This document shows positions 2,730 to 49,860 of a stretch of 64,000 bases of DNA, piece by piece; the stretch's first letter is position 1, and each line of letters begins with the position of its first letter. Source of the stretch: an uncultured delta proteobacterium (lineage in GTDB: Bacteria; Desulfobacterota; Binatia; UBA9968); contig CAVSHR010000011.1 of NCBI GenBank assembly GCA_963727625.1, positions 320,001-384,000 on the forward strand. The letters run 5' to 3'. The notes beneath the pieces are model-generated. The model ran no database searches, was not told the DNA's origin, and worked only from the letters and a program-made list of their open reading frames with translations. The position numbers were made by a program, and so were the translations under genes.

Positions 2730-2873
2730 GATGACCGACGCCGGACGACTGACTACCGACGATGGACGCTGCTCGCAATGTCGGCTGACGGGAGACCGAT
2801 GACCGGGGACCGATGCACTCTGCTCTTTGCGCCATGCCCTATGCTCTTTCCAAACTGCCTGCTGCCCCTTGCG
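2730..2873. repeat. degenerate heptamer tandem repeats
   Basis: GATGACC GACGCCG GACGACT GACTACC GACGATG, followed by TGCACTC TGCTCTT TGCGCCA TGCCCTA TGCTCTT. Confidence 0.6.
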
Positions 2874-2884
2874 TGAAAACTTCC

Positions 2885-4940: not shown

Positions 4941-4944
4941 CCGA

Positions 4945-6396: not shown

Positions 6397-6558
6397 AGGG
6401 GTTACCCGCCGCCGAGGGGTAAAAAATTAGTTGTGTTTACCACCGGCAGCATCTATATTCTTGGTATAATCCTCAAAAACCTGTTTCATTATAAGTGATC
6501 GCGGCAACGTGTCAAGAAAACTTCCAGGGCGCGCAATTGTAGCTGGAAGGGGAGACTC

Positions 6559-8724
6559 ATGATCTTCAGGCGATTTTCTAAGTTTGCTTTAATCTTAATA
6601 GCTTGGCTGGGAAGCAGCTGCGCGTTACTCGACGATGGCGCCCAGAAAAAGCCGCCGCCGACCGGACTTGTGACCACGCCGGTCTCCTATTACAGCACTC
6701 CTAAAGCGCGCTATCTCGGAACCAGATATAAAGAAAATCTTGAACGGCTGGCAATGCGCATTGTGCGGGACCCTAAGACCGCCTCGCTGCAATTTGCCAA
6801 CAATATCTCGTCGGTCGGCGGTATCGGTTTTTTCACTCACTCGGCCACCGAGACGCCCGACGAACGCTATCTGGAGGTTGTGCTGGCGACTCCCGAAACT
6901 TTCGAAACCAAAGGCAATTATAGTGAAAAGGTCGCCCGGATTTTTGCTCGCTATGGACCGGAGCTGCTCAGCATGCTCGGCGGTGATAAGGAAATTTATC
7001 AGGACGAGGAGTTGAGCGGTTATGGTCTGAATCTGGCGTGGCGCAATGCCATCGCGCAGGGCACTGCCAGCCGTATCGGCATGGCGCGGGCCGTCATCTA
7101 TTTTCATAAGGAGAGAGTTTTAAAATTCTTACGGCAAGAGATCAATGCCGACGATCTCCTGGCCAACGCGGTGATTTTCGCCGTCGAAGACGACGGGCCG
7201 CTGCAATTGGTTTCCTATCAACCGCACCCGACCAAGCCGGACTATCGCCCGCCGATCCGCGAGGACAATCTGGCAGCCGGAACGTTTGGTTCTAAGCTAC
7301 CGCAGGCTGGAGATTCCGGCGGGCCTGTGACGGCAACGAAGCCCAAAGCGAAACGAAATATCGAGGACGCCAAGCAAGACCCGACCGTGGTGAAAGAGCA
7401 AATACAGAGCGCGAGAACTGACAAGTCGAATGACCCAGAATCCAGAGCGGCAGCAAGGGTCCCGCCGGCCGCTTCAAGCGATCAGAAAATACTCCAGCGC
7501 CCGGCCGAATCCGACGCTAAAACGGCTTCACCGCCGCTTGCGAGTCGAGACGATGCCAATTCCGAAAGGCTCTCGCTTCGCCGGAGCACTGAACCCGTCT
7601 CGCCGCCGCTGCCTTTAGCGACAACTCCGTCAGTGGTTGCATTGACTGCCCCGACTGCGGCGGTCAAGACCGAGAATGAAACTAAGCGGAATGTTCCCGC
7701 CACAACGGCTGCGTCAAAGAATCCGGTGACATCAAAAAATCAGATCTCGCAAAATGACAGAGAAGATAAAACTCGGGCGACGGAGTCCGCAATAGCGGCA
7801 CCGAAGCCGGCGGTCGTGGCAGAATCACAAAAAACCTCGTCAGCGGTTGCGCCGTCGTTGATCGCCAGATCGCCGATTTCACCGGCCGTCGCTGAAAAGG
7901 CGGTCGCCACCCCGGCAGCCGTGGCGAATCTGCAAGGCCATGCGGTTGCTATTGAGCGCCCCGGTGCAGCGAATCTGGAAGCAACTCGTCCTGCCTTGCC
8001 AGTGGAAAAAGCGCCGCCGATGCCGATTCCGAGGTTAAAACCGCGAGCCTCCGCGCCGCTGACGCCGGCGTTAAACCGGATACCGGAGGAAATAGAAAGA
8101 ACCGATAGTCTGGGTCGTACCAAGGCGCCAGTGCCGGCAGCGACGGCAAAAACAACCGTGGAGCGACCAGCGCCAGAAGCGGCAAAATTCTCGCGAGCCG
8201 AAAAGACCGAGATGGGCGCAGCGCTTCGGTCCGCCGCCAAATCGCCCGAACCGGTGTCATTGCGGAAGCCGGCGAAAGCTCCGCCCGCTGCTAGCGTCGC
8301 CAAAATCGAGGCAGCCTCAATCAACCCGGTGGTACCTGGGGCATCGGCACCGGTGCGGGAAAAAATAGTTGAGAAGCCCGCGCCCGAACGGCTGGCCTCA
8401 CTCAAGAAGCCCGATGAAGCCATGGTCGCGAAAAAGCCGTTGGTGCGGTCGGCGCCGAAGCCCTTGGAGGGGTTTATCATTCAAATTGCCTTTAACGACA
8501 AGGAAAAGGCGCAGAGCTGGGCGGAAAAAATGGAGCGGCGCGGCTATGCCGTCTCGGTAACCGAGGCGGGCGCCGAAGGGTCGCTGCGCGTGCGGCTGGG
8601 TAACTTTGCGGTCCGCGATGACGCGGAACGGCAACTAAAGAATCTAAAGCAGGACGGCATGAAAGGCATCATCATCAACTTGCCGCAAGCGTTTCGGCCG
8701 GAGGCACGTTCATCACTGCCGTAG
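6559..8724 (+). CDS. SPOR-domain lipoprotein-like protein
   Basis: Signal with Cys (LIAWLGSSC), a globular N-terminal domain, a long Pro/Ala/Lys linker and a C-terminal SPOR (FIIQIAF...LRVRLGNFAVRDDAERQLKNLK). Confidence 0.8.
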   Translation: MIFRRFSKFALILIAWLGSSCALLDDGAQKKPPPTGLVTTPVSYYSTPKARYLGTRYKENLERLAMRIVRDPKTASLQFANNISSVGGIGFFTHSATETPDERYLEVVLATPETFETKGNYSEKVARIFARYGPELLSMLGGDKEIYQDEELSGYGLNLAWRNAIAQGTASRIGMARAVIYFHKERVLKFLRQEINADDLLANAVIFAVEDDGPLQLVSYQPHPTKPDYRPPIREDNLAAGTFGSKLPQAGDSGGPVTATKPKAKRNIEDAKQDPTVVKEQIQSARTDKSNDPESRAAARVPPAASSDQKILQRPAESDAKTASPPLASRDDANSERLSLRRSTEPVSPPLPLATTPSVVALTAPTAAVKTENETKRNVPATTAASKNPVTSKNQISQNDREDKTRATESAIAAPKPAVVAESQKTSSAVAPSLIARSPISPAVAEKAVATPAAVANLQGHAVAIERPGAANLEATRPALPVEKAPPMPIPRLKPRASAPLTPALNRIPEEIERTDSLGRTKAPVPAATAKTTVERPAPEAAKFSRAEKTEMGAALRSAAKSPEPVSLRKPAKAPPAASVAKIEAASINPVVPGASAPVREKIVEKPAPERLASLKKPDEAMVAKKPLVRSAPKPLEGFIIQIAFNDKEKAQSWAEKMERRGYAVSVTEAGAEGSLRVRLGNFAVRDDAERQLKNLKQDGMKGIIINLPQAFRPEARSSLP

Positions 8725-27625: not shown

Positions 27626-27698
27626 GGAAAATAAATTATAAATCATGGCGGGCCGGCGTGTTCGTCGGCTTCGGAACCGATCATCCCGCGTCGATTTT

Positions 27699-29390
27699 AT
27701 GTCTTACCTGGTCATTGCCCGGAAGTGGCGCCCGCAAATTTTTTCGGATATTGCAGGGCAGGAGCATATTACTCGGACTTTGCAAAATGCCATCCGCGCT
27801 AATCGCATCGCGCATGCGTTTCTATTTACCGGGGTCCGCGGGGTCGGCAAGACGACCGCTGCGCGGGTGCTCGCCAAAGCGTTGAACTGTGCCAAAGGGC
27901 CTACGCCGAATCCCTGTAATGAATGTAATCAATGCCGAGAGATTTCTCAGGGCAACTCCATCGACGTGTTCGAAATCGACGGCGCGTCGAACCGAGGCAT
28001 TGATGAAATAAGACAGATCATCGAAAACGTTCGTTATCAGCCGGCCAATTCCAGATTTAAAATTTACATCATCGACGAAGTGCATCAGGTGACCAAGGAC
28101 GCCTTCAATGCTTTGCTTAAAACGTTGGAGGAGCCGCCGCCGTCGGTAAAGTTTATTCTGGCCACCACCGAACCACAGCGGTTACCGGCGACTATCCTGT
28201 CGCGCTGCCAACGCTATGATTTCCGCCGTATCAATCTCCGTGAAATCGTCGAACGCCTCGGCGCCATCGCCCAGAGCGAGGGGCTCGCCATTACCGAGGG
28301 TGCCCTGGTACTGTTGGCGCGGGAAGCCGACGGCAGTATGCGCGATGCCCAGTCGTTGCTTGAGCAGGTTCTCGCCGTTGGCGCGAATATCGACGGCGAG
28401 ACCAAACGCGGCGCGGTGGATGAAACGTTGCTCCAAGACGTATTGGGCCTGGCGGAGCGGCGGGTTCTTTACGAGATTTCCGCCTCGGTGCTTGCGGGGG
28501 ATTCTCGCCGCTGCGTCGAACTGGTGGCTGCAGTCGTCAATCAAGGCCGTGACATCAATCGACTTTCGCGCGATCTGGTCGAGCACTTCAGAAATCTGCT
28601 GGTGGCGCGCCTGGCGGGCAAGAGCCAGGATGGAGCGTCGGGCAGTACGGCTAGAGCGAGCTTGAGCGCGCCCCTGTTGGATTTACCCGATCAAGAAATT
28701 GCCGATCTCAGCGAGCAGTCCCGGCCATTGTCGGTCGAAACGCTACTCGATTACTTCGATTTCATGAGCGCGGGCGATGAAGACGTGAGTCGTTCGGTAA
28801 CACCGCGCTTCGCCCTCGAAAGCGTTTTAGTGCGCCTGGCAGGTTTGCCGAAGACGCTACCGGTAAGCGAGCTCATCGGGCGTCTGGAGCGGCTCGAAAG
28901 CAAGGCGCCGCAGCCGCTCCTCGGCGGCAGCGTTGCGCCACGGGTTAATCCGTTGAAGGAAACAACGTTTGCTCCGGCGCCCGCGGTCCTGCCGAGAGAA
29001 GCGGCGGCGCCGGTCAGCCCAACCGATCGCTGGCGCGAGTTTGTCACGCACGTGGGCCGAGAGAAAAAATTCTTGGCCTCCCACCTCGATGCCAGCAAGG
29101 CGTTGGAGCTGCCACCGCAGCGATTGCGCATCGGTGTTTCGGAGCGGCATCACTTGGCGTTCCTGCTTGACGGAGATAATCTAATCGCGCTCAAGGAGCT
29201 AGCCAATAGTTTTTTCGCTCAGGATGTCAACGTGCAGATCGTCAACATGACGTCGGAACGTACGAGCGGCGGCACCGAAGCGGCTTCCGCTGCGAGGCCT
29301 AACGCCGCCGACGAGCGAACCCCAATGGTCAAAGAGGCACTGCGCATATTCGGTGGATCGGTGCGGAATGTGCGCAAGGACAAGGGTTAG
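27699..29390 (+). CDS. dnaX: DNA polymerase III subunit gamma/tau
   Basis: MSYLVIARKWRPQ, GVRGVGKT, Zn motif, IIDEVH, FNALLKTLEEPP, SRCQ. Confidence 0.97.
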   Translation: MSYLVIARKWRPQIFSDIAGQEHITRTLQNAIRANRIAHAFLFTGVRGVGKTTAARVLAKALNCAKGPTPNPCNECNQCREISQGNSIDVFEIDGASNRGIDEIRQIIENVRYQPANSRFKIYIIDEVHQVTKDAFNALLKTLEEPPPSVKFILATTEPQRLPATILSRCQRYDFRRINLREIVERLGAIAQSEGLAITEGALVLLAREADGSMRDAQSLLEQVLAVGANIDGETKRGAVDETLLQDVLGLAERRVLYEISASVLAGDSRRCVELVAAVVNQGRDINRLSRDLVEHFRNLLVARLAGKSQDGASGSTARASLSAPLLDLPDQEIADLSEQSRPLSVETLLDYFDFMSAGDEDVSRSVTPRFALESVLVRLAGLPKTLPVSELIGRLERLESKAPQPLLGGSVAPRVNPLKETTFAPAPAVLPREAAAPVSPTDRWREFVTHVGREKKFLASHLDASKALELPPQRLRIGVSERHHLAFLLDGDNLIALKELANSFFAQDVNVQIVNMTSERTSGGTEAASAARPNAADERTPMVKEALRIFGGSVRNVRKDKG

Positions 29391-29448
29391 CGGCAAACGA
29401 GCTGCTACACCCGGAGCGGCCAACTTTAAATTCCAAGGAGGAGGGTCG

Positions 29449-29772
29449 ATGGCAAGCATAGGCGCAATGGGCGATCTCTTGAAGCAAGCCCAGGAAATGC
29501 AGGCGCGAATGGCCAAGATTCAAGAAGCGCTGGCCTCTAAAACGGTGCAGGGCTCCGCCGGCGGAGGCATGGTTCAAGTGACGGTCAACGGGCAGTTCAA
29601 CATTACTCAAGTGCAAATCGAACCGTCGGTGATCAATGCGGCGGAAAAGGACATGTTGGAAGATCTGATCCTCGCGGCGGTAAATGACGGCATGCGCAAG
29701 GCCCGCGAGCTGGCGTCGGCGGAAATGAGCAAGCTCACCGGAGGAATGAAGATCCCAGGATTGATGCCATGA
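29449..29772 (+). CDS. ybaB: YbaB/EbfC nucleoid-associated protein
   Basis: LLKQAQEMQ...GSAGGGMVQVTVNG...MLEDLILAAVN; lies between dnaX and recR. Confidence 0.95.
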   Translation: MASIGAMGDLLKQAQEMQARMAKIQEALASKTVQGSAGGGMVQVTVNGQFNITQVQIEPSVINAAEKDMLEDLILAAVNDGMRKARELASAEMSKLTGGMKIPGLMP

Positions 29773-30389
29773 TCCTCTATCCCGCTCCTCTTGATCGTCT
29801 CGTTCAAGAACTGTCAAGGCTCCCAGGCATTGGTGAAAAGAGCGCGGCGCGTTTGGCCTTCCACATGCTCAAAGGCAACAAGGATGACGTGATGCGGCTG
29901 GCCGACAGCATTGCCAAATTGCGCCAAGAAATGGGTTTGTGCCGGCTTTGTTTCGGTTTCAGTGAAGTCACGCCGCACGACGACGACGGTGCGCTCTGCG
30001 GCATCTGCCGTAGCGCCGGAAGGGAAGCCGATAAGATCTGCGTCGTCGAGGAACCGGCTGATTTGATCGCTGTCGAGAAATCACAGGAATACCGCGGCCT
30101 GTATCACGTGATCCACGGCACCATTTCGCCGCTCGACGGCGTTGGGCCGGACGCATTGCGCATCAAGGAATTGATCGAACGGCTGCGCGACGGGGCGGTC
30201 AAAGAAGTCATCGTCGCGACCAACCCGACCATGGACGGCGAAGCGACGGCGCTCTATCTTTCCAAGGTGATCAAACCGATGGGGGTTTCGGTGACCCGCA
30301 TTGCCCGCGGCCTGCCGATGGGTGGCGACCTGGAATACACCGACGCGGTGACCTTGGGCAAAGCCCTCGAGGGCCGGCGTGAAATCTAG
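29769..30389 (+). CDS. recR: recombination mediator RecR
   Basis: LPGIGEKSAARLAF, C4 zinc finger, TOPRIM (ATNPTMDGEATA), RIARGLPMGGDLEY. Confidence 0.97.
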   Translation: MILYPAPLDRLVQELSRLPGIGEKSAARLAFHMLKGNKDDVMRLADSIAKLRQEMGLCRLCFGFSEVTPHDDDGALCGICRSAGREADKICVVEEPADLIAVEKSQEYRGLYHVIHGTISPLDGVGPDALRIKELIERLRDGAVKEVIVATNPTMDGEATALYLSKVIKPMGVSVTRIARGLPMGGDLEYTDAVTLGKALEGRREI

Positions 30390-30401: not shown

Positions 30402-31433
30402 CTAAAAAATTTTTCTACCGACATCGATCGCCAGCCAGAATAACATTGCGATCAACGCCGAGGCGGGGATCGTCAATATCCAAGCCCAGACGATTCGTCC
30501 CGCTACATTCCAGCGCACCGATTTTAGCCGTCTAAGCGAGCCCACACCGATGATCGCTCCGGTAATCGTATGAGTGGTGGACACCGGGATGCCGAAATGG
30601 GCAGCGCTGAAGAGGGTAACGGCTCCGGCCGCCTCGGCAGCGAAGCCGCCCATGGGTTGCAAGCGGGTGATGCGCGAGCCCATCGTGTGCACGATACGCC
30701 AGCCGCCCGATAACGTTCCCAAGCCGATGGCCGCGTGGGCGAGCAAGACAATCCAAAATGGAATCATCAGTTTTCCCGCAGGATCACTGACCAGATGACG
30801 ATAATCGGCAACGGTAAAAAGGGCGCCGGCAATGATGCCCATGGTTTTTTGCGCATCGTTGGTGCCATGCCCGAGGCTGTAAGCCGCGGCCGACAACAGC
30901 TGCCCGCGGCGGAAAAAGTGATCCACGTTGGATGGAATCGCGCGCTTGAAGATATGCAGGATGGCCATCAGATTGAGCATGCCCAATCCCATGCCCATCA
31001 CGGGGGCTAAGACGATGAAGATCAAAGTACTCACCCAGCCTCCGGGAATGATGACACCGAGCCCCGCCTTGGCGACACCGGCCCCGGCGTAGGCGCCGAT
31101 CAGGGCGTGCGACGAACTGGTCGGTAGACCGATGTACCAGGTGATCAGGTCCCAGGTGATCGCGCCGAGCAGTCCGGCAAGAATCACATAGGAATCCACC
31201 TGCTGGACATCGAGCAGGCCGCTGCCGATGGTCTTGGCGACCGCGGTGCCGAAGGTAAAGGCGGCGACGAAATTCCAAACCGCCGCCCAGGCAACGCCTT
31301 GAAGCGGGGTGAGGACACGGGTGGAAACCACCGTGGCGATCGAGTTTGCCGCGTCGTGAAAACCATTGACATAATCGAAAACCAGGGCGATGGCGATAAT
31401 CAGTGCCGTTAGAATAAATACCGGATCAGCCAT
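30402..31433 (-). CDS. pit: inorganic phosphate transporter (PiT family)
   Basis: NGFHDAANSIATVV, GLPTSSSHAL, HGTNDAQK, PVSTTH. Confidence 0.96.
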   Translation of the reverse strand: MADPVFILTALIIAIALVFDYVNGFHDAANSIATVVSTRVLTPLQGVAWAAVWNFVAAFTFGTAVAKTIGSGLLDVQQVDSYVILAGLLGAITWDLITWYIGLPTSSSHALIGAYAGAGVAKAGLGVIIPGGWVSTLIFIVLAPVMGMGLGMLNLMAILHIFKRAIPSNVDHFFRRGQLLSAAAYSLGHGTNDAQKTMGIIAGALFTVADYRHLVSDPAGKLMIPFWIVLLAHAAIGLGTLSGGWRIVHTMGSRITRLQPMGGFAAEAAGAVTLFSAAHFGIPVSTTHTITGAIIGVGSLRRLKSVRWNVAGRIVWAWILTIPASALIAMLFWLAIDVGRKIF

Positions 31434-32055
31434 TTTTGATGATAACCCGTTGCAGTACGTCGGCGACGTCTTCCATGGTATCGGTGGTCTCTTCGAGCAT
31501 CTCGTAGATTTCTTTCCAGCGAATCAGGTTAAACATATCGTCCTTGTGGTTGACGATCTCGACTAGCGCCTCGCGCAAGATCCGATCGCCGTTATTCTCG
31601 ATCGTATTGATTTCCTTGATATGCTCGTTCACCAGGCGAAAATTTTTTTTCTCCCGAAGATTGGGCATGGCCATGTGCAGCTCCTTCGCGCCGCTGCGAA
31701 TCAGGTGGGCCAATTGGCGGGCTTTCTCGGTGGGCGCTTCGATGCGAAAGATCTGCATTCGGACGGCCGTTGCTTCAATCTTATCGATGGAATCGTCCAG
31801 GGCCGAGATCAGCCGTTCGATATCTTCGCTGTCGAGCGGGATAATCAGCGTGTGCATCAGCAGATGCATGACTTCATGGACGATAAAGTCGCCGCGATGC
31901 TCCAATTCGGTGATGCGCGCGACTTTGCTCTCCACCTGCTCATAATTGTCGAACAAGTCTTGGAGGATTTCCGCCGCTTCGAGCAGGTTGCCGGTGGCTT
32001 TTTCGAACCACTCATAGAATTTTGTTTCCGCTGGCAAAAACTGAAATTTAGCCAT
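31426..32055 (-). CDS. DUF47 / PhoU-like Pit accessory protein
   Basis: LEHRGD...PLDSEDI...ENNGD...WKEIYEMLEETTD; overlaps the pit start. Confidence 0.92.
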   Translation of the reverse strand: MAKFQFLPAETKFYEWFEKATGNLLEAAEILQDLFDNYEQVESKVARITELEHRGDFIVHEVMHLLMHTLIIPLDSEDIERLISALDDSIDKIEATAVRMQIFRIEAPTEKARQLAHLIRSGAKELHMAMPNLREKKNFRLVNEHIKEINTIENNGDRILREALVEIVNHKDDMFNLIRWKEIYEMLEETTDTMEDVADVLQRVIIKNG

Positions 32056-32165
32056 GATCTCCCCGCGCGCTCGGCGTTCAGATGGCAAATAAAATTGAAG
32101 AATTTGAGACGCGATGGAATTTAACATGCGCCTCGGGGCGCTTCAACCGAAAAGAAACTTTTTAG

Positions 32166-34379
32166 TTACGCCAAAAGCTGTTGCACGCGTTCGCGGATGT
32201 CGTCGCGGACTTTACGGAAAATCGCCAGGACCTGTTCGTCGTCGCCGGCCGCCTGTGCCGGATCAATGATTGGCCAGTGGCTGCGTTGAGCGCTGAGCGG
32301 CACGACCGGGCATTGTTCCCGGGCGTCGTCACAGAGGGTGACCAGATGATCGATCTTATCGAGCGGGACCGCGTCGAGGCCCTTGGAGCGTTGATCGGAA
32401 ATGTCGATGCCCGCTTCCATCATCACTCGAACGGCAAGCGGATGAATGGGCTTCGGTTGGGTTCCGGCGCTGAAAAATTCAGTAGCGCCATTGGCGTAAT
32501 GATGCGCGAAAGCTTCGGCCATTTGACTGCGGCAGGAGTTGCCGGTGCACAAAAAGAGGATGCCTTTCCGCGGGTTATTGTTGGAAGACGCTACGGGCAA
32601 GCGGACACGTACCGTGGTGCCTTTGTTGATGGTGCTTTCGATTTTGAGTTCGCCCTGATGCGCTTGCACAATATGTTTGACGATGGCCAGGCCTAGACCA
32701 GTACCGCCGAGATCGCGCGAGCGCGCCTTGTCGACTCGATAGAAGCGTTCGGTCAGGCGCGGTAAGTCTGTGTCCGGGATGCCCGGGCCGGTGTCCGCAA
32801 TCGAGATTTCGACCAACGGCTGGGCGCCGTTTTCTTGCGCAACTCGCGTCGCCGCCAGCGTCACCTTGCCGTCGGGCGGCGTGTATTTGATCGCGTTGTC
32901 GACCAGATTGATAAACAGCTGTTGCAGACGGTCGGTGTCGCCCAGCAGCCTCGGCAGCTCCGGGGCGGCGTGTTGGCTGAGCTTGATGTTCTTTTTCGCG
33001 GCGTGGTCCCAGAATACTTCCAACACCCGCTGAATCAGTTGGTTGGCATCGAGGGGCTGGAGGTTCAGTTGAATGGCGCCGGATTCCAAGTCGGACAGGG
33101 TCAAAAGGTCTTCGGTGAGCCGGCTCAGCCGTTCGGAATGGCGTTCGATAATCATCAAAAACTGCCGGCTGTCTTCCGGCTCGGCCGGCGGCGTATCGAG
33201 CAAAGTCTCGACGTAACCGCGGATGGCGGTTAATGGCGTGCGCAGTTCGTGCGATACGTTGGCGACGAAATCAGAGCGCATGGATTCGAAACGTTTGATA
33301 TCGGTGACGTCGTGGAACACCAAGATCGATCCGAGCACGTCGCCTTGTGGGTTGCGCAGCCGGCCCGCGTTCACACGAAACCAGCGGTCTTCGTCGAGCT
33401 CGACTTCTTTCGAATAGCGTTGAGCCGAAAAATCGAAGGCCAAAACTTCTTCCAAGATCTTGTGAACTTCTGGGTGGCGCGAAATTTCCAGCATTGAGAC
33501 GCCGTAGATATCGCGCCCCTCGGTTACGTGGAACATGTTCCGAGCTTGGTCGTTGATGAGCAACACCTGTCCCTTGGGATCGAGCACGAGCACTCCCTCG
33601 ATCATGCAGCGTAAGATTGAATCGACCTTTTCCTTTTCGCTGATGATTTGCTGTAAATTACCGCGGATATTGTCGCTCATTTCTTTGAGACGCTGCTCGA
33701 GCAGTGAGATTTCATCGCGGCTGCGCTGCGGGAAAAAATTCTCCGGGAAAGAGCCCTGGGCAACCTGCGCGGCAAATTGTTCGAGGTGCTGAAAACGGCG
33801 GGTGAGGTGACGGGAAAACAGCCATGCGAGAAGCAACCCGCAAGCCGATGCGAGAAGCAAGCCGCTTAGGACCGAGGCGCGATTCGTTCGAATCGCGCTT
33901 TCCACTTCCGTGAGCGGTTTGGCGATGCGAATGACTCGTCTCGACCCCAAGCCGGTTTCGCTCAACGCGTGGTAGAGCATTTCGAATCCCACGGTCGTGC
34001 TGTAGCGCATGGCGTTGCCCGAGCCGCTTTGCAGAGCCTCCGCCACTTCAGGACGATTGGCGTGGTTCTCCATCACCGCAGAAGATTGGGATGAGTCGCA
34101 CAGGACCTTTCCGTCGCCGGCGATCACCGTAATGCGCAGGGCAAGATCATCGCCCAACTGGCGGCAAAGCGCGTCGAAACTGGAGCCTTGTTCACCGAGG
34201 GGCAACAAGCGGCTCAATAAATGGGCGTCCCGCTCCATGCGCTCGCTGAGGTTGGCGATATAAAAATTGCGCAGCTTAGCGCTGGAGTAGAAATAGAAAC
34301 TTGCAGAAAGCAGGAGAACTAGAACTAGATAGGAGAGGAAAAATTTGATGATGAGCTTACTGTTCCAGAGCCTTTTCAT
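32166..34379 (-). CDS. phoR: phosphate-regulon sensor kinase PhoR (sensor-HAMP-PAS-HisKA-HATPase) fused to a C-terminal ArsC/LMW-PTP domain
   Basis: DFVANVSHELRTPLTAIRGYVETL, NLVDNAIKY, DTGPGIP, ERFYRVDKARSRDLGGTGLGLAIVKH, then in frame ILFLCTGNSCRSQMAE...VTLCDDAREQCP...HWPIIDP. Confidence 0.93.
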   Translation of the reverse strand: MKRLWNSKLIIKFFLSYLVLVLLLSASFYFYSSAKLRNFYIANLSERMERDAHLLSRLLPLGEQGSSFDALCRQLGDDLALRITVIAGDGKVLCDSSQSSAVMENHANRPEVAEALQSGSGNAMRYSTTVGFEMLYHALSETGLGSRRVIRIAKPLTEVESAIRTNRASVLSGLLLASACGLLLAWLFSRHLTRRFQHLEQFAAQVAQGSFPENFFPQRSRDEISLLEQRLKEMSDNIRGNLQQIISEKEKVDSILRCMIEGVLVLDPKGQVLLINDQARNMFHVTEGRDIYGVSMLEISRHPEVHKILEEVLAFDFSAQRYSKEVELDEDRWFRVNAGRLRNPQGDVLGSILVFHDVTDIKRFESMRSDFVANVSHELRTPLTAIRGYVETLLDTPPAEPEDSRQFLMIIERHSERLSRLTEDLLTLSDLESGAIQLNLQPLDANQLIQRVLEVFWDHAAKKNIKLSQHAAPELPRLLGDTDRLQQLFINLVDNAIKYTPPDGKVTLAATRVAQENGAQPLVEISIADTGPGIPDTDLPRLTERFYRVDKARSRDLGGTGLGLAIVKHIVQAHQGELKIESTINKGTTVRVRLPVASSNNNPRKGILFLCTGNSCRSQMAEAFAHHYANGATEFFSAGTQPKPIHPLAVRVMMEAGIDISDQRSKGLDAVPLDKIDHLVTLCDDAREQCPVVPLSAQRSHWPIIDPAQAAGDDEQVLAIFRKVRDDIRERVQQLLA

Positions 34380-35076
34380 CGAATTTATAGCCGACACCCC
34401 GCAAAGTTAAGATCCATCTCGGTTTGCCGTCGTCCTTTTCAATCGCCTTGCGCAACCGGCGAATGTGCACGTCGACGGTGCGCGGGGTGACGAAGGTCTC
34501 GCCGCCCCAGACGCGGTCGAGCAGCTGGTCGCGGCTGAGCACGCGGTTGGGATTTTGAACCAAGAATCGCAAAAGCTCAAACTCTTTGAGCGTCAGCTTC
34601 ACGGCTTTGCCGCGAGCGAAAACCTCGTAGGTGGTAAAATCGATTTTCAGTCCGCCTTTTTCGTAAGCAGGGGGTGAATCGGCATTGGCGTTGGCATTGG
34701 CGCGCCGCAGTATGGCGCGCACGCGCGCGACCATTTCTCGGGGGCTGAACGGCTTTGCCAAGTAGTCGTCGGCGCCCATTTCCAAACCGACGACTCGGTC
34801 CGCTTCGCCGGCCTTGGCGGTGAGCATGAGGATAGGCAGTTTCGCGGTGTCCGGTTGGCCGCGCAGGATTTTGCAGACTTCGATGCCGGACAACCCCGGC
34901 AGCATGAGGTCCAATACCACCAGGTTGGGTTTCTCGCGCTGAATCACCTTCAACGCCTGTTCGCCATCTTCCACGGTGATCACCTTGAAACGTTCCTGGA
35001 TCAAGTTGTAGCCGACCAGCTTGGCAATATCCGGTTCGTCTTCGACGACTAAGATTTTCTGTGCGCCGGCAGCCAT
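34357..35076 (-). CDS. phoB: OmpR-family response regulator PhoB/PhoP
   Basis: ILVVEDE, VLDLMLP, GADDYLAKPFSPRE, RTVDVHIRRLR, TLRGVGY; lies between phoU and phoR. Confidence 0.93.
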   Translation of the reverse strand: MAAGAQKILVVEDEPDIAKLVGYNLIQERFKVITVEDGEQALKVIQREKPNLVVLDLMLPGLSGIEVCKILRGQPDTAKLPILMLTAKAGEADRVVGLEMGADDYLAKPFSPREMVARVRAILRRANANANADSPPAYEKGGLKIDFTTYEVFARGKAVKLTLKEFELLRFLVQNPNRVLSRDQLLDRVWGGETFVTPRTVDVHIRRLRKAIEKDDGKPRWILTLRGVGYKFDEKALEQ

Positions 35077-35078
35077 AA

Positions 35079-35780
35079 TCAAACCGTGGGCGGAAGCTGC
35101 TTCATATGGCGTATGCTCTTGCCTTTGACCATGAAGATCACCATCTCGGCGATGTTGGTGGCGTGGTCGGCGATACGCTCGAGGTATTTCGAGATCGAGC
35201 TGATCTTGGTGGCGCGGGTGATGGTCTGGACGTTTTCGATCATAAAAGTCAGGGTCTCGCGGAAAATTTGCGCGTTGAGCTCGTCGACCTCGGTGTCGTC
35301 CTTGCAGACCTTGAGGGCGAGCTCGGTGTCTTCGCGGACAAACGCGTCGAGGCTTTCGTGGATCATTCGTTGTGAGATGCGGGCCATGCGCGGAATATCG
35401 ATATAGGGCTTGAGCTGCGGCTCGAGGTTGAGCTCCAGCGCCCGCTCGCAGACGTTAACGGCCATATCGCCGATGCGTTCCAAATCCGTCGTAATTTTCA
35501 AACCGGTGGTGATAAAGCGGAGATCCCGTCCCGCTGGTTGATGCAACGCCAGGAGCTTGATGCAGAGCTCGTCGATTTCGACGTCCAGCCGGTTCACCTC
35601 ATGGTCGCGCTCGATGATCACCCGCGCCAGCTCGGAATCGCGATCGACCAGCGACTTGACCGCCTTATGGATCTGGTCTTCGACCAGACCGCCCATATAG
35701 AGGATTTCCTCGCGGAGTCTTTTCAGCTCTTCTTCGTATTTTTTATCGGTGTGTTCGGCTTGCATATCTTCCTCGATCAT
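35079..35780 (-). CDS. phoU: phosphate signalling protein PhoU
   Basis: [33 protein letters not shown]. Confidence 0.96.
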
Positions 35781-36622
35781 CCGAAGCGGCCGGTAATATA
35801 ATCCTCGGTTTGGCGTTTTTCCGGAGCGGTGAAGAGTTTTTGCGTATTCCCGAATTCGACCAATTCACCGACGTAGAAGAAAGCTGTATAGTCCGATGCG
35901 CGCGCGGCTTGCTGCATGTTGTGGGTGACGATGACGATGGTGACGGTATCCTTGAGCTCGTGAATCAGCTCTTCTATTTTCGCGGTGGCGATGGGGTCGA
36001 GCGCGGAACAAGGCTCGTCCATGAGCAACACTTCCGGGTCGACGGCGAGCGCGCGCGCAATGCACAGCCGTTGCTGTTGCCCGCCCGAAAGGCTGGTACC
36101 CGGCTTCTGCAAGTTGTCTCTGACTTCGTCCCACAGCGCCGCGCTTTTCAAGCTTTTCTCGACTTTTTCCGCGATCAGCTTGCGGTCGCGGATGCCGTTT
36201 AACTTATAGCCCGAGGCGACGTTATCGTAGATGGTCATACTCGGAAAGACGTTTGGTTTCTGAAAAACCATGCCCACTCGCCGCCGTACGTCGACCGGGT
36301 CGACGCCGGGACCGTACAGGTCTTGGCCATCGAGCAGGACTTTACCTTCCACTCGGCCGCCGGGAGTGACTTCGTGCATCCGGTTGAGGCAGCGGATAAA
36401 GGTGGATTTGCCACATCCCGACGGCCCGATGATCGCGGTCACTTTGTTGTTCTTGATGTAAAGGTTGACGTCTTTGACCGCGCGAAAGTCTCCGTAGTAA
36501 ACATTTAAGTGCTCTACTTGGAGCCGCTGATCTTCCGGAGCGATGAGCGAATCGGTTTTTTTCGGCGGCTGCGAGTCTTTTGGTTTAGGGCTGTCCTCGC
36601 TGTCGTACCGCTCATCGCTCAT
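35777..36622 (-). CDS. pstB: phosphate ABC transporter ATPase
   Basis: [42 protein letters not shown]. Confidence 0.97.
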
Positions 36623-36635
36623 TTGCGCTCCCCCG

Positions 36636-37517
36636 TTATTCACGCGTTTTCCCCCGCAAAAAGGCCCGAGTCATGACGCTGATTACCAAGACAACCATCA
36701 TCAACACGAACGACGCAGCCCATGCTTTTCTGTGCCAGTCGTCATAAGGACCGGTGGCATAAGTATATATCAGCATTGGCACGGTCGCGATGGGCTTGCC
36801 AAGGTTCAAATTCCAAAAGGGATTGCCGAAGGCGGTGAACAACATCGGCGCTGCCTCGCCGAGGGCTCGGGAAATTGCCAGTACCGCTCCGGTGATCAAA
36901 GCCTTCGACGAGACCGGCAAAACTACGCCAATTATCGTTCGCCACTTCGGAATGCCTAGCGCCAGCGAGGCCTCGCGCAACGATGGCGGGACCAAGCGGA
37001 AGGCCTCGTGCGAGGCGATGAGAATGATTGGCACCATGATGAAGGCATAAGCGACCGAACCCGACAGACCTGAAAATGAGCCCATGGGTCGGACGATCAG
37101 CGCGTAAGCGAACAGTCCGACGACGATGGACGGTACTCCGGTCAAGACTTCGGCCATGAACCGAACGGCGCGGCCCATGCGCGAGCTGGGAAACTCGTTG
37201 ATAAAAATCGCCGCGCCGAGGCCGATCGGCATCGCGAACAAGGTAGCGCAGGCGACGACCATCACGCTACCGACCAGAGCATTGGCGATGCCGCCGCCCA
37301 CCTCGCCGGGCGGCAAAGGCAACGCGGTGAGAAATTCCCAGTCGATGGCCGTAGCTCCCTGGTAGACGACGTACCCGAGAATTGCAAGCAGGATAAAAAT
37401 CGACACGGCGGCGCACAAAACCATGCCGGTAATCGCCAGCTGTTCGACTAACTTGCGCAGGCGAAATCGGCGGCGATCGGTTTCAACGGTCATTACTTTC
37501 ATGGAATCCGCTGTCAC
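36636..37517 (-). CDS. pstA: phosphate ABC transporter permease
   Basis: [35 protein letters not shown]. Confidence 0.95.
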
Positions 37518-38512
37518 TCAAAAACGGCAACTTCTCCTTTGGACAAGCGCCGGATTAAAAATTGCGCGCCTAAGCTGATCAGGATCGTTATCCCGAACAA
37601 GACCAGCCCGACGTAGATGAGGGAAGACACATAAAGGTCGTAGGTTGCCTCGGTGAACTCGCTGGCGATTTGACTCGCCATGCTGTGCACCGGATCGAAG
37701 AGCGAATGGATGAGATCGAAAGAGTTGCCGCCGACCATGGTGACCGCCATGGTTTCGCCGATAGCACGGCCGAGCCCGAGTATCACCGCGCCGAAGAGTC
37801 CAACCCGTGCGTAGGGCAGGGCGACTTGCCAGATGGCTTCCCATTTGGTCGCGCCGAGGGCCAACATGCCCTCGATCTGCGGGCGCGGCACGGTCAATAA
37901 TATATCCCGCGAGATTGCCGTAATGATCGGCGTGATCATGATGGAGAGTATCAAACTGCCGGACAAAACGCCGACGCCGTAAACCGCAGGGCCGTCAAAA
38001 AGAAAAAACCAGCCAAAATTCGCCTTGAGCCAAATTTGCAGCGCCCGTACGATCGGCACCATTACGAATAAGCCCCACAGGCCGAAAACGATGCTGGGAA
38101 TACCGGCCAGCAATTCGATCGGGTAGGAAATCATCGGCCGGAGCCATTTGGGGATGTAAAAACTGATGAAAATCGCGGAACCGATGCTTATGGGCACGGC
38201 AAGCAACAGGGCGATGAAGGCTTTCACCAAAGTGCCGATGATGGTCGGGAGCGTGCCGAACTCACGGGTTACCGGATCCCATGTCGTGCCCACTAAAAAT
38301 TTGAGACCAAAAGTCTGGATCGCCTGCCAGGAGCCGCGAAACAGATCGAACACCAGCAAAAAAGCGAGCAGGAGAACTGAAAGGGCAAATCCCTGGGTAA
38401 TGCGATAACACAAACGGTCGCCATAATTGATCACCTTTGCATCGTGATAGATGCCTCGGCCGCTAGTCAGCGCCGAGAGCTCGCCGTCGATCGTTGCATT
38501 TTGATCTTTCAT
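37514..38512 (-). CDS. pstC: phosphate ABC transporter permease
   Basis: WDPVTREFG, IELLAGIPSIVFGLWG, LGRAIGETMAV. Confidence 0.95.
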   Translation of the reverse strand: MKDQNATIDGELSALTSGRGIYHDAKVINYGDRLCYRITQGFALSVLLLAFLLVFDLFRGSWQAIQTFGLKFLVGTTWDPVTREFGTLPTIIGTLVKAFIALLLAVPISIGSAIFISFYIPKWLRPMISYPIELLAGIPSIVFGLWGLFVMVPIVRALQIWLKANFGWFFLFDGPAVYGVGVLSGSLILSIMITPIITAISRDILLTVPRPQIEGMLALGATKWEAIWQVALPYARVGLFGAVILGLGRAIGETMAVTMVGGNSFDLIHSLFDPVHSMASQIASEFTEATYDLYVSSLIYVGLVLFGITILISLGAQFLIRRLSKGEVAVFE

Positions 38513-38536: not shown

Positions 38537-38564
38537 GCGGCCGGCACCGCTAGATGCCGGCCGC
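38537..38564 (-). terminator. stem-loop between pstS and pstC (partial terminator or mRNA stabiliser)
   Basis: GCGGCCGGCA-loop-TGCCGGCCGC 10-bp stem, followed on the minus strand by TTTGGTTTTGTT. Confidence 0.6.
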
Positions 38565-38593: not shown

Positions 38594-39655
38594 CTATTTA
38601 AGCACGACTTGGTTGTTGACCTTGATCTTTTTTAGCAATGCTTCGGCCTTCTTTACCGCCGCGCCTTTCAGCGGAGCGTACTCGAGCGGTGCGGCGAATT
38701 TCTGGCCGTCGTGGATCATCCACCAGGCCAGCTGTGCAACCGCATCCGCCTTGGCAGCGTCGCGCTGGTTCTCGTAAATCAACAACCAGGTAAAGCCGCT
38801 GATCGGATAGGCGTTGGGGTTGGGGCTGTTCGTGATGACAACTTCCATATTGTCGGGGAGGTCCTTTTGGTCAGCAGCGGCCGCGGCGCCTTCAAGGCTC
38901 GGGCCCACCCACTTGCCGGCTTTATTACGAAGTTGCGCCCACGGCATTTTATTCTGATGGGCATAGGCCAACTCTACGTAACCGATCGCGCCCGGGATCT
39001 GTTTAACCGAGTTGGCGACCCCTTCATTGCCCTTGCCGCCGACGTCGCCGGGCCAATTGACCGAAGTGGCCGAACCAACCTTCTCTTTCCACTCCGAGCT
39101 GACCTTGGAAAGGTAGTTCGTAAAGATGAAAGTGGTTCCCGACCCGTCCGAGCGATGCACTACGGCAATCGCCGAGTCCGGCAGCTTGACACCGGGATTG
39201 ATCGTCTTGATGCGGTTGTCGTTCCAGTTCTTAATTTTCTTCAAATAGATGTCGGCCAGTACTTCCGGCGTTAGCCGGAGCTTGCCGGATTGGACGCCGG
39301 GGAGATTGACGACGATCGCCTCAGCGCCCGCGACGGTGGGCACGTGAAGAACGTTGCCGCCTTTGGACTCGGACTTTTGATTGTCGCTCATGATGCCATC
39401 GGAGCCGCCAAAATCGACGGTTTGCGCCGCCAGTTGGCGGATGCCGCCGCCGGAACCGATCGATTGGTAATTGACTCTTACGCCGCAGGCCTTGTTGTAT
39501 TCACTGAACATCTTGGCGTAGAGCGGGTAAGGAAACGTAGCGCCCGCGCCTGTAAGCTCTTTGACTCCCTTGGTTGGGCAGCTCGCCAATGCCGGTCCAG
39601 CGGTAGCGGAGACCGCCGCAATGACGACCGCCACGGCAAAATTCTTAGCTTTCAT
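38594..39655 (-). CDS. pstS: phosphate ABC transporter substrate-binding protein
   Basis: GAGATFPYPLY, YQSIGSGGG, HRSDGSGTT, GNEGVA, YPISGFTW. Confidence 0.97.
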   Translation of the reverse strand: MKAKNFAVAVVIAAVSATAGPALASCPTKGVKELTGAGATFPYPLYAKMFSEYNKACGVRVNYQSIGSGGGIRQLAAQTVDFGGSDGIMSDNQKSESKGGNVLHVPTVAGAEAIVVNLPGVQSGKLRLTPEVLADIYLKKIKNWNDNRIKTINPGVKLPDSAIAVVHRSDGSGTTFIFTNYLSKVSSEWKEKVGSATSVNWPGDVGGKGNEGVANSVKQIPGAIGYVELAYAHQNKMPWAQLRNKAGKWVGPSLEGAAAAADQKDLPDNMEVVITNSPNPNAYPISGFTWLLIYENQRDAAKADAVAQLAWWMIHDGQKFAAPLEYAPLKGAAVKKAEALLKKIKVNNQVVLK

Positions 39656-39694: not shown

Positions 39695-39721
39695 GTTACA
39701 GATTGGTTACGAAACCGTTAA
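39695..39721 (-). promoter_or_regulatory. Pho-box-like direct repeats (pstS proximal)
   Basis: Minus strand TTAAC-N6-GTAAC-N6-GTAAC with 11-bp period. Confidence 0.7.
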
Positions 39722-47730: not shown

Positions 47731-47765
47731 TTGACTACGCTATTATTTCGATGATACTGGAAATA
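47731..47765 (+). promoter_or_regulatory. ars promoter and ArsR operator
   Basis: TTGACT -35 element and inverted repeat TATTTC-N10-GAAATA abutting the arsR ATG (probably a leaderless mRNA). Confidence 0.6.
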
Positions 47766-48148
47766 TGGAAATAAAGACGGCGGTGATGGCTCTGGCCGCT
47801 CTGGCCCAGGAAACGCGACTGTCGATTTTTCGTCTGCTTGTCGAGGCGGGGCGAGACGGCGAATCGGTCGGGCGCATCGGTGAGCGTTTGAAGGTCCCGG
47901 GCGCAACTCTGTCATTCCACTTAAAGGAACTCGCTCGCGCCGGCTTGGTGTCCGCACGACAAGAGAGGCAATTTATCTATTACGCGGTAGACTTCGGACG
48001 CATGGCAGAGCTCATGACTTATCTCACGCAGAATTGCTGCCAGGGGATGCCGAAGGAATGTCTCACAGTTGTCGAGACGGCACTGGGACGCTGCTGTCCG
48101 CGTCCAATTATTACCGTTAAGCGCAAAGTAAAAGGGGCTCGCTCGTGA
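47765..48148 (+). CDS. arsR: ArsR/SmtB transcriptional repressor
   Basis: ALAQETRLSIFRLLV, ATLSFHLKEL, C-terminal NCCQG and further Cys residues. Confidence 0.93.
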   Translation: MEIKTAVMALAALAQETRLSIFRLLVEAGRDGESVGRIGERLKVPGATLSFHLKELARAGLVSARQERQFIYYAVDFGRMAELMTYLTQNCCQGMPKECLTVVETALGRCCPRPIITVKRKVKGARS

Positions 48149-48207
48149 AGGGCGTTGACGGACGTCATTTCCTTATCGGCACCGGTGGGGCCTCGAAGGA
48201 GCGTTGA

Positions 48208-48705
48208 ATGGAACTTGAATCTTTCAATGTTCTATTTCTCTGCACCGGCAATTCCGCGCGCAGCATCATGGCCGAGGCAATCCTCACCGCGCTTGGAAAA
48301 AATAAGTTCAACGCTTTCAGCGCCGGAAGCCGTCCGACCGGGCGCGTGAATCCTCTTGCGCTGGAGCTCCTTGAAAAGAATCGGTTTCCCACCGGAAGGC
48401 TGCGCGGCAAAGACTGGAAGGAATTCTCCGGGCCCGGCGCGCCGTTCATGCATTTTGTCTTTACGGTATGTGACCAGGCAGCGGCTGAACCTTGCCCGGT
48501 ATGGCCGGGACAACCGATGACCGCACATTGGGGTGTTGCCGATCCGGCGGCGGCCCAGGGCGCCGAAGAGATCAAACGAAAGGCTTTTCTAAAGGCCTAC
48601 ACGGATCTTCATCGGCGCATATCGTTGTTTGTCAGCCTGCCGTTCGACAAACTTACCGCTCTCGCCCTCAAAGAAAAACTTGACGAAATCGGGCGCGCGC
48701 AATGA
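48208..48705 (+). CDS. arsC: arsenate reductase (LMW-PTP fold)
   Basis: LFLCTGNSARSIMAE, FTVCDQAAAEPCPVWPG, HWGVADP; lies between arsR and acr3. Confidence 0.92.
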   Translation: MELESFNVLFLCTGNSARSIMAEAILTALGKNKFNAFSAGSRPTGRVNPLALELLEKNRFPTGRLRGKDWKEFSGPGAPFMHFVFTVCDQAAAEPCPVWPGQPMTAHWGVADPAAAQGAEEIKRKAFLKAYTDLHRRISLFVSLPFDKLTALALKEKLDEIGRAQ

Positions 48706-48807
48706 TTTTGGATAGAGTGTTCGCAGCGCCAGTTTTGCCGACCCTGGTTCGGGCCTTCGCGAAGGAAAACCGTGAAGTGGACGCAAGATTATCTTAAGTA
48801 GGATTTC

Positions 48808-49860
48808 ATGGTTCAAGAAGACAGCTTTGTCCTACGACTCTCGTGCCTAGACCGCTATCTCACGCTGTGGATTTTTCTGGCGATGGCGGCGGGGGTCATC
48901 AACGGCTTTTTGTTTCCGACCGCGGTCCATGGCCTGAGCGCGATGGTATCGGTTGGGACGACCAACGTACCGATCGCGATCGGCCTGATTTTGATGATGT
49001 ATCCGCCCTTGGCAAAGGTGCGTTATGAGGAAATGGGCGACGTGTTTCGCAACTGGAAAGTGCTCGGTGTGTCGCTGTTTCAGAACTGGGTGATCGGTCC
49101 CGTGCTCATGTTCGCGCTGGCGATCATATTTTTGCGCGATTACCCGGAATATATGACCGGTCTCATTCTCATTGGCCTGGCGCGTTGCATTGCGATGGTT
49201 ATCGTATGGAACGAACTCGCCAGGGGGGACAATGAATACGCCGCGGGCTTGGTGGCGTTCAACAGCGTGTTCCAGGTGCTGTTTTACAGCCTCTATGCCT
49301 GGGTGTTTATCACCGTACTGCCGACTTGGTTCGGTGTAAGCGCTTCGATCGTGAATATCACCATCGGGGCGATCGCCCAAAGCGTGTTCATCTACCTGGG
49401 AATCCCGTTCATTGCGGGTTTTCTGACCCGCTTCTTTCTCGTTCGCCTGAAAGGTAAGGATTGGTACCAATCGGCTTTTGTTCCGAAAATCAGCCCGCTG
49501 ACGCTGGTTGCATTACTTTTTACCATCATCGTCATGTTCAGCCTCAAAGGCGAGCTGATAGTGCAACTGCCGATGGACGTCTTGCGGATTGCGATACCGC
49601 TTCTGGTGTATTTTATCCTGATGTTCCTGATTTCTTTCTTCATGGGGCACAGCATTGGCGCGGATTACAGTAAAACCGCCACCCTGGCCTTCACGGCTGC
49701 GAGCAATAACTTCGAGCTGGCGATTGCCGTGGCCGTGGCGGTATTCGGCATCAACAGCGGCGCGGCATTCGCCGCCGTGATCGGGCCGCTCATCGAGGTA
49801 CCCGTCATGATCGGACTGGTGAACGTGGCGTTCTTCTTACAGAAACGATTTTTCGTTTGA
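48808..49860 (+). CDS. acr3: arsenite efflux transporter Acr3
   Basis: [47 protein letters not shown]. Confidence 0.96.

Follow-up and report, generated by a model that had tools for sequence, protein, structure and literature searches.

At 32166-34397 on the reverse strand of the window (the whole stretch analyzed here, 64,000 nucleotides of contig CAVSHR010000011.1 from an uncultured delta proteobacterium of the Binatia), a PhoR-type phosphate sensor kinase appears to run without interruption into an arsenate reductase (ArsC) domain. Is this fusion real, and what would a phosphate-sensing kinase do with such a domain? The gene is a single open reading frame (ORF) of 743 amino acids with a GTG start and a stop codon at 32166-32168. 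An in-frame ATG six codons downstream, at 34379, gives a 737-residue product identical to protein-collection entry P0002, and the coordinates 32166-34379 used in an earlier sequence-only reading of this DNA fit that ATG-started gene call. The same reading described kinase and tail as sharing one frame across a linker devoid of a stop, an ATG or a ribosome-binding site. This was confirmed by the ORF list, by the translation, which passes from kinase to tail without a stop, and by the linker DNA itself (VRLPVASSNNNPRKG), in which no stop, no ATG and no GGAGG-like (Shine-Dalgarno-like) site was found.

Pfam domains in the protein follow the order sCache_like-HAMP-PAS-HisKA-HATPase_c-linker-LMWPc, all encoded on the reverse strand. 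The PhoR-type kinase part (residues 1-603, 32589..34397), assigned with Pfam and NCBIfam, comprises sCache_like (residues 44-145, 34268-33963) flanked by two transmembrane helices, HAMP (193-245, 33821-33663), PAS (257-366, 33629-33300), HisKA (373-440, 33281-33078, E 4.7e-23) and HATPase_c (486-603, 32942-32589, E 5.1e-31). A linker of residues 604-612 (VASSNNNPR, 32562..32588) leads to the ArsC domain (residues 613-743, 32169..32561), with a P-loop from C617 to R623 followed by C689, C696 and D712. The LMWPc match (residues 613-742, E 5.2e-21) covers the full profile, positions 1-144 of 144. Scores of the kinase part lie just below the NCBIfam equivalog cut-offs for PnpS (NF046044, 388.1 against 400 bits) and phoR_proteo (TIGR02966, 318.7 against 334.2 bits); the PhoR-type PAS-HisKA-HATPase_c core is present, and the phospho-acceptor histidine box SHELRTPL varies little or not at all in an alignment of 80 full-length family members that are 53-80% identical to the protein of the window.

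The tail was predicted by the sequence-only reading to carry the complete signature of a thioredoxin-type ArsC. The motifs CTGNSCRS (617-624), VTLCDDAREQCP and HWPIIDP were found in its translation, and the best match among solved structures was Bacillus subtilis ArsC (1jl3, E 4.1e-35), aligned without gaps over 130 residues. In this alignment C617, R623, C689, C696 and D712 correspond to 1jl3 positions 10, 16, 82, 89 and 105, which the ArsC literature assigns as nucleophile, P-loop arginine, pair of resolving cysteines and general acid; every catalytic position is thus matched, as predicted. Down to E 1e-11 the closest solved structures are arsenate reductases only. Likewise, the only NCBIfam models matching the tail at E<=1e-5 are those of arsenate reductases, with no phosphatase model at this threshold. 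A low-molecular-weight tyrosine or arginine phosphatase would be recognized by a CX5R P-loop and a DP acid in the absence of the Cys82/Cys89 pair, together with a match to a phosphatase model; the fused domain has the pair and lacks such a match. In the AlphaFold2 model the mean predicted local distance difference test score (pLDDT) of blocks of the ArsC domain is 83-94, with one block at 65, and the domain is modelled with confidence. Judged by these alignments, the fused domain is probably a catalytically competent, thioredoxin-coupled ArsC of the pI258/B. subtilis type.

Whether the fusion might be unique to this assembly was addressed by a search for homologues using residues 590-743 as query against proteins of 408-1301 amino acids, which gave 239 matches among 504 candidates. 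All 120 proteins listed among these matches have the HisKA+HATPase_c+LMWPc architecture, mostly at a length of 730-760 amino acids, one of them being the protein of the window itself. Source labels of the listed fused proteins, where given, are mostly metagenome-assembled genomes (MAGs) named 'Candidatus Binatia' (4) and 'Deltaproteobacteria bacterium' (3), along with single others, and from these labels the lineage is judged, with moderate confidence, to be Binatia-like. Within the genus, a domain at least 52% identical to that of the window is present in 18 of 31 genomes, and 14 of the 18 encode kinase and ArsC in a single open frame. In a further genome (G016) the junction is intact and the gene is split over two contigs, giving 15 genomes with an intact junction. 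The remaining three (G018, G003 and G045) are low-contig-count assemblies in which the fused gene lies in several frames, and these frameshifts may be sequencing errors. A single in-frame TAG near kinase residue 195 was observed in the copy of G007 (L020, G007:C131), in which the ArsC domain lies in an open frame of 546 amino acids; this TAG may be a genuine nonsense mutation or an error.

Across a phylum-wide sample of 401 genomes the two-part match occurred in the genome of the window only, the ATPase part alone being matched in five others. Amongst representatives clustered at 50% identity the ArsC domain matched 13,955 proteins at E<=1e-3, and the best 150 of these comprised one full-length kinase (P0112) and C-terminal fragments of the same architecture. 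When residues 480-743 were compared with a protein cluster collection, only generic HATPase_c fragment clusters were recovered. A profile scan of genome contigs (at least 600 matches) returned mostly unrelated kinases and stand-alone ArsCs, with no fused gene among the matches listed, and supplied stand-alone ArsC sequences for the domain tree described below; the nearest unfused kinases listed belong to Candidatus Binataceae MAGs, with 62-66% identity over the ATPase part. One apparent further fusion (L033) was rejected: the kinase gene and the arsC-like gene directly behind it are separate and in different frames. This unfused adjacency (L033 3009-4001, on a MAG contig labelled Bordetella parapertussis) resembles the arrangement from which a fusion would presumably arise.

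An assembly artefact, that is a chimera or a lost stop peculiar to this genome, finds a point in its favour in the read data, since public contigs do not bridge the junction: no run listed contained half or more of the sampled sequence words, none of the runs with matches was of RNA, and from the reads of four public runs only short contigs could be placed, none of them across 32576-32643. Against this stand the same in-frame junction in the 15 independently assembled genomes of the genus and its recurrence in 119 more of the listed protein clusters, which come from several data sources, and the probability of an artefact is considered negligible. Uniqueness to the assembly, named in the sequence-only reading as the outcome that would undo its proposal, is not what was found. 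The search for the architecture and its distribution, which had also been proposed there, showed it to be conserved and restricted to one lineage. The fusion is genuine, conserved and confined to one genus-level lineage.

Conservation of the catalytic residues was assessed in 121 family sequences, two of which are the window's own. The motif CxxNSxRS is present in 120 of the 121 (as exact CTGNSCRS in 97), the C-x6-C pair in 119, and HWxxx[D/N]P in all. In the alignment of 80 full-length members C617, N620, S621, R623, S624, C689, C696, H707 and W708 are invariant, and D712 is present in at least 90%. Ratios of nonsynonymous to synonymous substitution (dN/dS) were calculated by the Nei-Gojobori method for 13 intact genes (78 pairs); with dS of about 1.5, near saturation, the medians are rough figures, of 0.17 for the ArsC domain, 0.18 for the sensor, 0.15 for PAS and 0.11 for the dimerization and catalytic ATP-binding region (DHp-CA). 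On this comparative evidence the ArsC domain is a constrained and apparently catalytically complete module.

Low-molecular-weight phosphatases have this fold and the CX5R(S/T) P-loop too, and a phosphorylated substrate would be tethered close by, so that the LMWPc domain could be imagined to hydrolyse PhoB~P, the phosphohistidine of PhoR or a phosphotyrosine or phosphoarginine substrate, acting as a built-in signal sink. However, Cys689 and Cys696, which we presume to be required only for the disulfide cascade of a reductase, are precisely the residues that are invariant in the 80 aligned sequences and present in 119 of the 121. Taken with the family and structure matches described above, which are to arsenate reductases only, this makes a phosphatase distinctly improbable.

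The history of the fusion was reconstructed from two trees, both obtained by quick searches and supported only by the Shimodaira-Hasegawa-like approximate likelihood ratio test (SH-aLRT). That of the kinase core, a maximum-likelihood tree, has 32 rows; G045 was left out as too fragmented, and G042, G046 and G019 are also not included. Close relatives in the genus, with kinases 72% identical, end a few residues past HATPase_c as canonical PhoR does, and are followed directly by DUF47-pit. Fused and unfused genes interleave in the tree, requiring at least seven changes of state. With unfused outgroups as the root (a second genus of the family, the basal relative G008 and two other families), the tree can be read as a single gain at the base of a clade of 27 rows (SH-aLRT 99) and six later losses, a count that includes an unpublished genome (G005). 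Remnants of the domain persist behind the kinase stop codon in two of the unfused genomes: G017 retains two ArsC-domain pieces with an internal deletion between them (tblastn E 8e-8; 75% DNA identity over 56 nt), and G014 retains a decayed copy with a stop at the codon of the nucleophilic cysteine and co-linear DNA matches. In these two cases the remnants show directly that the domain was lost, as opposed to having been gained several times. In G011, G015 and G020 the tails look like the domain's first strand truncated by a stop codon, which is only suggestive. In G045 (L027, G045:C21, approximately 2770-3477) the three catalytic cysteines are replaced by Ser, Gly and Ala and the kinase lies in four frames, consistent with either a decaying pseudogene or an error-bearing long-read assembly.

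In the tree of ArsC domains (69 rows) the 15 fused domains all group together (one change, SH-aLRT 87), lying within a clade that holds stand-alone enzymes of Bacillota and Nitrospirota and distant from the stand-alone copies of the genome. This placement points to a single acquisition of a canonical reductase and not to duplication of a resident ars gene. Through the losses of the domain the kinase and the operon remain unchanged. One gain and at least six losses with the kinase intact show the add-on to be conditionally useful and not integral.

Such a pattern might also be expected of a drifting passenger, created when a stop codon between phoR and an adjacent arsC was lost by accident, nearly neutral and now disappearing. 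The confinement to one genus-level lineage (one of 401 phylum genomes, the window's own), the one full-length representative among the best 150 of 13,955 matches in the 50% identity library, the many losses with decayed remnants and the three replaced cysteines of G045 are all in keeping with it. It is countered by the ArsC dN/dS of about 0.17, similar to that of the sensor domain, and by retention of the catalytic motifs in 119-121 of 121 sequences whose overall pairwise identity is only 55-80%. Nor was a separate arsC seen between phoR and DUF47 in any of the relatives' loci looked at. We regard a neutral passenger as improbable.

The fused gene lies in an operon of the order pstSCAB-phoU-phoBR-DUF47-pit, all on the reverse strand. 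This bears out, by NCBIfam scores and gene order, the claim of the sequence-only reading that Pst and Pit are both encoded with the kinase. Upstream of the kinase are pstS (38594..39655; TIGR00975, 379.9 bits, cut-off 205), pstC (37514..38512; TIGR02138, 295.4 bits, cut-off 196.45), pstA (36636..37517; TIGR00974, 269.5 bits, cut-off 193.45), pstB (35777..36643; TIGR00972, 396.4 bits, cut-off 343.2), a phoU of ordinary length (233 amino acids, 35079..35780; TIGR02135, 237.6 bits, cut-off 130.25) and a phoB-type response regulator (34357..35082). The last narrowly misses the cut-off of its model (TIGR02154, 269.5 against 296.2 bits), and its identification as PhoB is supported by its position adjoining phoU and phoR. 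Downstream are a gene resembling DUF47/TIGR00153, the usual partner of Pit (31426..32127; 57 bits, cut-off 104.3), and a Pit-family phosphate transporter (30402..31433), which at 120.4 bits against the PitA cut-off of 800 is assigned at family level only. In all related loci that reach far enough, phoU-phoB lies upstream of phoR and DUF47-pit downstream.

A candidate Pho-box-like site of three KTAAC repeats with 11-bp phasing was found on the reverse strand at 39695..39721, 40-66 bp upstream of the pstS start. The pattern KTAAC-N6-KTAAC occurs in the window only upstream of pstS, as two overlapping matches (0.17 expected; two reached in 1 of 100 shuffles). The Pho-box consensus and its 11-bp rule are our basis for calling these repeats a candidate PhoB site. 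A terminator-like hairpin with a 12-bp stem lies between pstS and pstC (38537..38564, reverse strand), as detected in a consensus scan for promoters and terminators in which the total of sites in the window was no higher than in shuffled sequence.

Arsenate is the classic toxic mimic of phosphate and enters cells through phosphate transporters. The fused gene would encode one bifunctional membrane protein, with residues 1-603 acting as a PhoR-type sensor kinase and residues 613-743 as an arsenate reductase, and the kinase part would partner the PhoB encoded beside it in the operon. Because the reductase is part of PhoR, in a pst/pit operon, it would be co-expressed with the phosphate transporters and made whenever this operon of the Pho regulon is induced, that is, when high-affinity phosphate uptake admits arsenate. 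It would be kept at the membrane within the Pst/PhoU/PhoR complex, at the point of arsenate arrival, and would reduce arsenate there; the arsenite formed would be exported by the Acr3 pump, whose gene lies 13 kb away. We give an even chance to this reading, in which the domain is an active, dispensable thioredoxin-type reductase that is tethered to the Pst/PhoU/PhoR complex and expressed together with it.

The manner of attachment was examined by modelling and by comparison of linkers. In the AlphaFold2 model, built on the 80-row alignment, residues 603-611 form coil, with pLDDT below 50 at 606-608; for the full protein the mean pLDDT is 80.7 but the predicted template modelling score is 0.38. 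Median dN/dS of the linker is approximately 0.96 in the 13 genes and 78 pairs, a value drawn from nine residues and thus few sites. Linker length is 10 amino acids in 57 and 11 in 19 of 80 measurable homologues. The model shows the ArsC domain on what is predicted to be a flexible tether of about ten residues, apparently unconstrained in sequence. A complex prediction with two DHp-CA copies and the ArsC domain scored 0.00 and was counted neither for nor against docking.

The genome encodes other ArsC-like proteins. The sequence-only reading had placed a separate arsRC-acr3 operon about 13 kb from the kinase, and it was found at 47765-49860 on the forward strand, 13.4 kb from the kinase start. 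It comprises arsR (47765-48148), a divergent LMWPc arsC-like gene with the P-loop CTGNSARS (48208-48705, 62.4 bits on the pI258 model) and acr3 (48808-49860, 460.9 bits, cut-off 282.8). For a third LMWPc copy, located on a different contig, the same model gives 89.5 bits; with 156.4 bits, the fused domain is thus closer to the canonical thioredoxin-type ArsC than any other copy in the genome. That the nearby operon already provides detoxification had been offered as a reason for a regulatory role of the fused domain. This argument is weakened by the divergence of the operon's ArsC, and further by the presence of operon-type copies in both fused and unfused genomes.

The same fold was also found on PhoU, which bridges PhoR and PstSCAB in one membrane complex according to two reports (PMC13577022, PMC11389368). 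PhoU+LMWPc proteins of approximately 370 amino acids occur among the 50%-identity representatives (P0152 and P0225), with another (P0348) in a further search, and a metagenome scan gave 24 loci (L119-L142) with PhoU and an LMWPc-like domain in a single stop-free frame, one of which is cut by a contig end. In loci of sufficient extent it is the first gene of a pst operon that also includes pstC, pstA and two copies of pstB. Among the 23 full-length PhoU fusions, 21 have Asp, one has Ser and one has Cys where the nucleophilic cysteine would be; the second resolving cysteine is mostly Phe, and the DP motif is retained. Most PhoU fusions cannot be reductases, because the nucleophilic cysteine is replaced, and they may represent pseudo-enzymes serving as a ligand-binding or docking module of the Pho signalling complex. 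By sequence, two members of the Pst/PhoU/PhoR complex have captured the same fold independently, in apparently catalytic form on PhoR and mostly non-catalytic form on PhoU, which speaks for a specific link of the fold with this complex.

Several observations weigh against a tethered detoxifying enzyme. The 156.4-bit score of the domain (151.6 for the whole protein) is below the equivalog cut-off of 174.3 for NCBIfam arsC_pI258_fam (TIGR02691), despite which this is its top family by a wide margin. Sensor kinases are usually present in low copy number and are poor vehicles for bulk detoxification. All genomes examined, fused or unfused, hold other LMWPc ArsC-like genes, including a copy in an arsR-acr3 operon. 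The conserved linker length of 10-11 amino acids could reflect a geometric requirement, and the Asp-for-Cys replacement in 21 of 23 PhoU fusions implies that the fold can be selected at this complex for a non-catalytic role.

Much of this would suit a regulatory switch, in which the ArsC domain senses cytoplasmic arsenate (or another oxyanion, or thiol redox state) and tunes PhoR. A Cys617 to Cys689 to Cys696 disulfide cascade beside the ATP-binding domain would shift the balance between kinase and phosphatase modes, and expression of Pst and Pit would answer to arsenate as well as to phosphate. A linker of conserved length (10 or 11 amino acids in 76 of 80) joins the ArsC domain straight to the catalytic ATP-binding domain, the low copy number of kinases is in general better suited to signalling than to bulk catalysis, and other ArsC-like genes are on hand for detoxification. 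PhoU, a regulator of the same complex, elsewhere bears the same fold mostly without the nucleophilic cysteine; such cysteine-less fusions indicate that the fold can serve the complex without catalysis and keep a regulatory role in play. The signal read by PhoR is, moreover, reported to be cytoplasmic and of unknown identity (PMC11389368). Set against these points, the linker is predicted to be disordered and is near-neutral in sequence, and it apparently offers no helical or coiled-coil coupling of the kind that would usually be looked for at signal-transmitting junctions. At least six independent losses have left an apparently complete kinase in an unchanged operon, and in the unfused sister lineages and the outgroups this operon does without the domain altogether. 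A regulatory switch is a serious possibility, though overall an unlikely one.

The sequence-only reading had preferred regulation. Its in-frame fusion, complete ArsC, pst/pho/pit operon and conservation all stand, and the preference itself is not supported as it was put: given the coil linker, the losses of the domain with an intact kinase and the strictly kept catalytic set, a dispensable tethered enzyme fits at least as well as a sensor. A broader proposal would treat the ArsC-type fold as a recurrent cytoplasmic oxyanion module of the Pst/PhoU/PhoR complex, functioning on PhoR as an arsenate-driven disulfide switch that distinguishes arsenate from phosphate and retunes uptake, and on PhoU as a cysteine-less ligand-binding or docking module. 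This is put forward tentatively and is doubtful as it stands; if true, it would provide a first direct molecular entry to the cytoplasmic input that has long been sought for PhoR.

Compared with known systems, each half of the protein belongs to a well-known kind, and the novelty is the partner, a phosphate-signalling kinase, together with PhoU. The fused domain shares with the ArsC of pI258 and B. subtilis (1jl3, 1jf8; TIGR02691) its fold, its length, an identical P-loop CTGNSCRS and equivalents of Cys82, Cys89 and Asp105, but forms the C-terminus of a membrane histidine kinase instead of a free cytoplasmic protein, scores below the equivalog cut-off and is encoded in a pst/pho rather than an ars operon. 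With the PhoR and PnpS kinases (TIGR02966, NF046044) the protein shares the PAS-HisKA-HATPase_c core, the adjacency of phoB and phoU and a position downstream of pstSCAB. Unlike Escherichia coli PhoR, the fused kinase has an extracytoplasmic sCache-like domain plus HAMP, and it carries the ArsC domain in addition. Fusions of ArsC (LMWPc) as such are common, and ArsR-ArsC, MerR-ArsC, rhodanese-ArsC and tandem ArsC proteins were seen elsewhere; mycobacteria also have an Acr3-ArsC fusion. All of these likewise join the reductase to a protein of its pathway or to a regulator of it and thereby oblige co-expression, whereas the partner here is a membrane kinase of phosphate signalling and not an arsenic-resistance repressor or pump. 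PhoU+LMWPc proteins carry the same fold on the C-terminus of another member of the Pst/PhoU/PhoR complex in pst operons; the partner is different and the origin independent, and the PhoU copies mostly lack the nucleophilic cysteine.

PhoBR has been reported to control arsenic genes, for example that of arsenite oxidase in Halomonas sp. HAL1 (PMC4563254). Both cases link the Pho two-component system to arsenic; the known links, the one reported for HAL1 among them, are transcriptional, and here the link is a covalent fusion. The sequence-only reading knew of no characterized example of a PhoR+ArsC protein, and a full-text literature search, with subscription journals mostly outside its reach, likewise found no published description of a PhoR+ArsC or PhoU+LMWPc fusion.

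The PhoR fusion, the naturally truncated alleles of sister species and the PhoU fusions together make a ready comparative system. They open the questions of how arsenic defence may be physically coupled to phosphate uptake and how the Pho complex may be modulated by an oxyanion-binding domain. On the conservative reading, the locus would illustrate a detoxifying enzyme tethered at the site of entry of its substrate and the gain of a domain followed by its repeated loss. The practical reach is modest, the lineage being an uncultured one of soil and sediment and the arsenate-reductase role a predicted one.

Some further observations concern the surroundings of the operon. Two DUF47-pit cassettes occur 3' of phoR in the genus (L004-L029), 84-92% and 32-43% identical to that of the window. 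Each lies behind both fused and unfused kinases, which indicates that the region just 3' of phoR has been swapped repeatedly; for the same reason, a link between loss of the ArsC domain and replacement of the cassette was considered and rejected. Beside the pit end of the operon, at 27645-30389 on the forward strand, are three ORFs resembling dnaX, ybaB and recR by translation.

Many genomes of the genus have a stand-alone ArsC-like gene, with 40-44% identity to the fused domain, at a distance of some 10 kb from the pho operon. Examples with the pho and stand-alone ArsC genes on the same contig are G004:C3 (85277 and 75565), G012:C162 (16514 and 5812) and G044:C7 (55777 and 44048). The occurrence of this arrangement in both fused and unfused genomes suggests that the pho-ars neighbourhood predates the fusion. 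The basal relative G008 has a stand-alone LMWPc (46% identical) that was considered as a donor of the fused domain and rejected: with its P-loop CTGNSARS and its place beside ppk1-ppx it is not of the fused type. It would be a further case of a reductase-like gene amid phosphate genes. On its contig (L118) this gene (3334-3813, reverse strand) stands head-to-head with a ppk-like ORF (4040-6139, forward strand), which is followed by an exopolyphosphatase-like ORF at 6182-7000 (forward strand), both named by eye from their translations.

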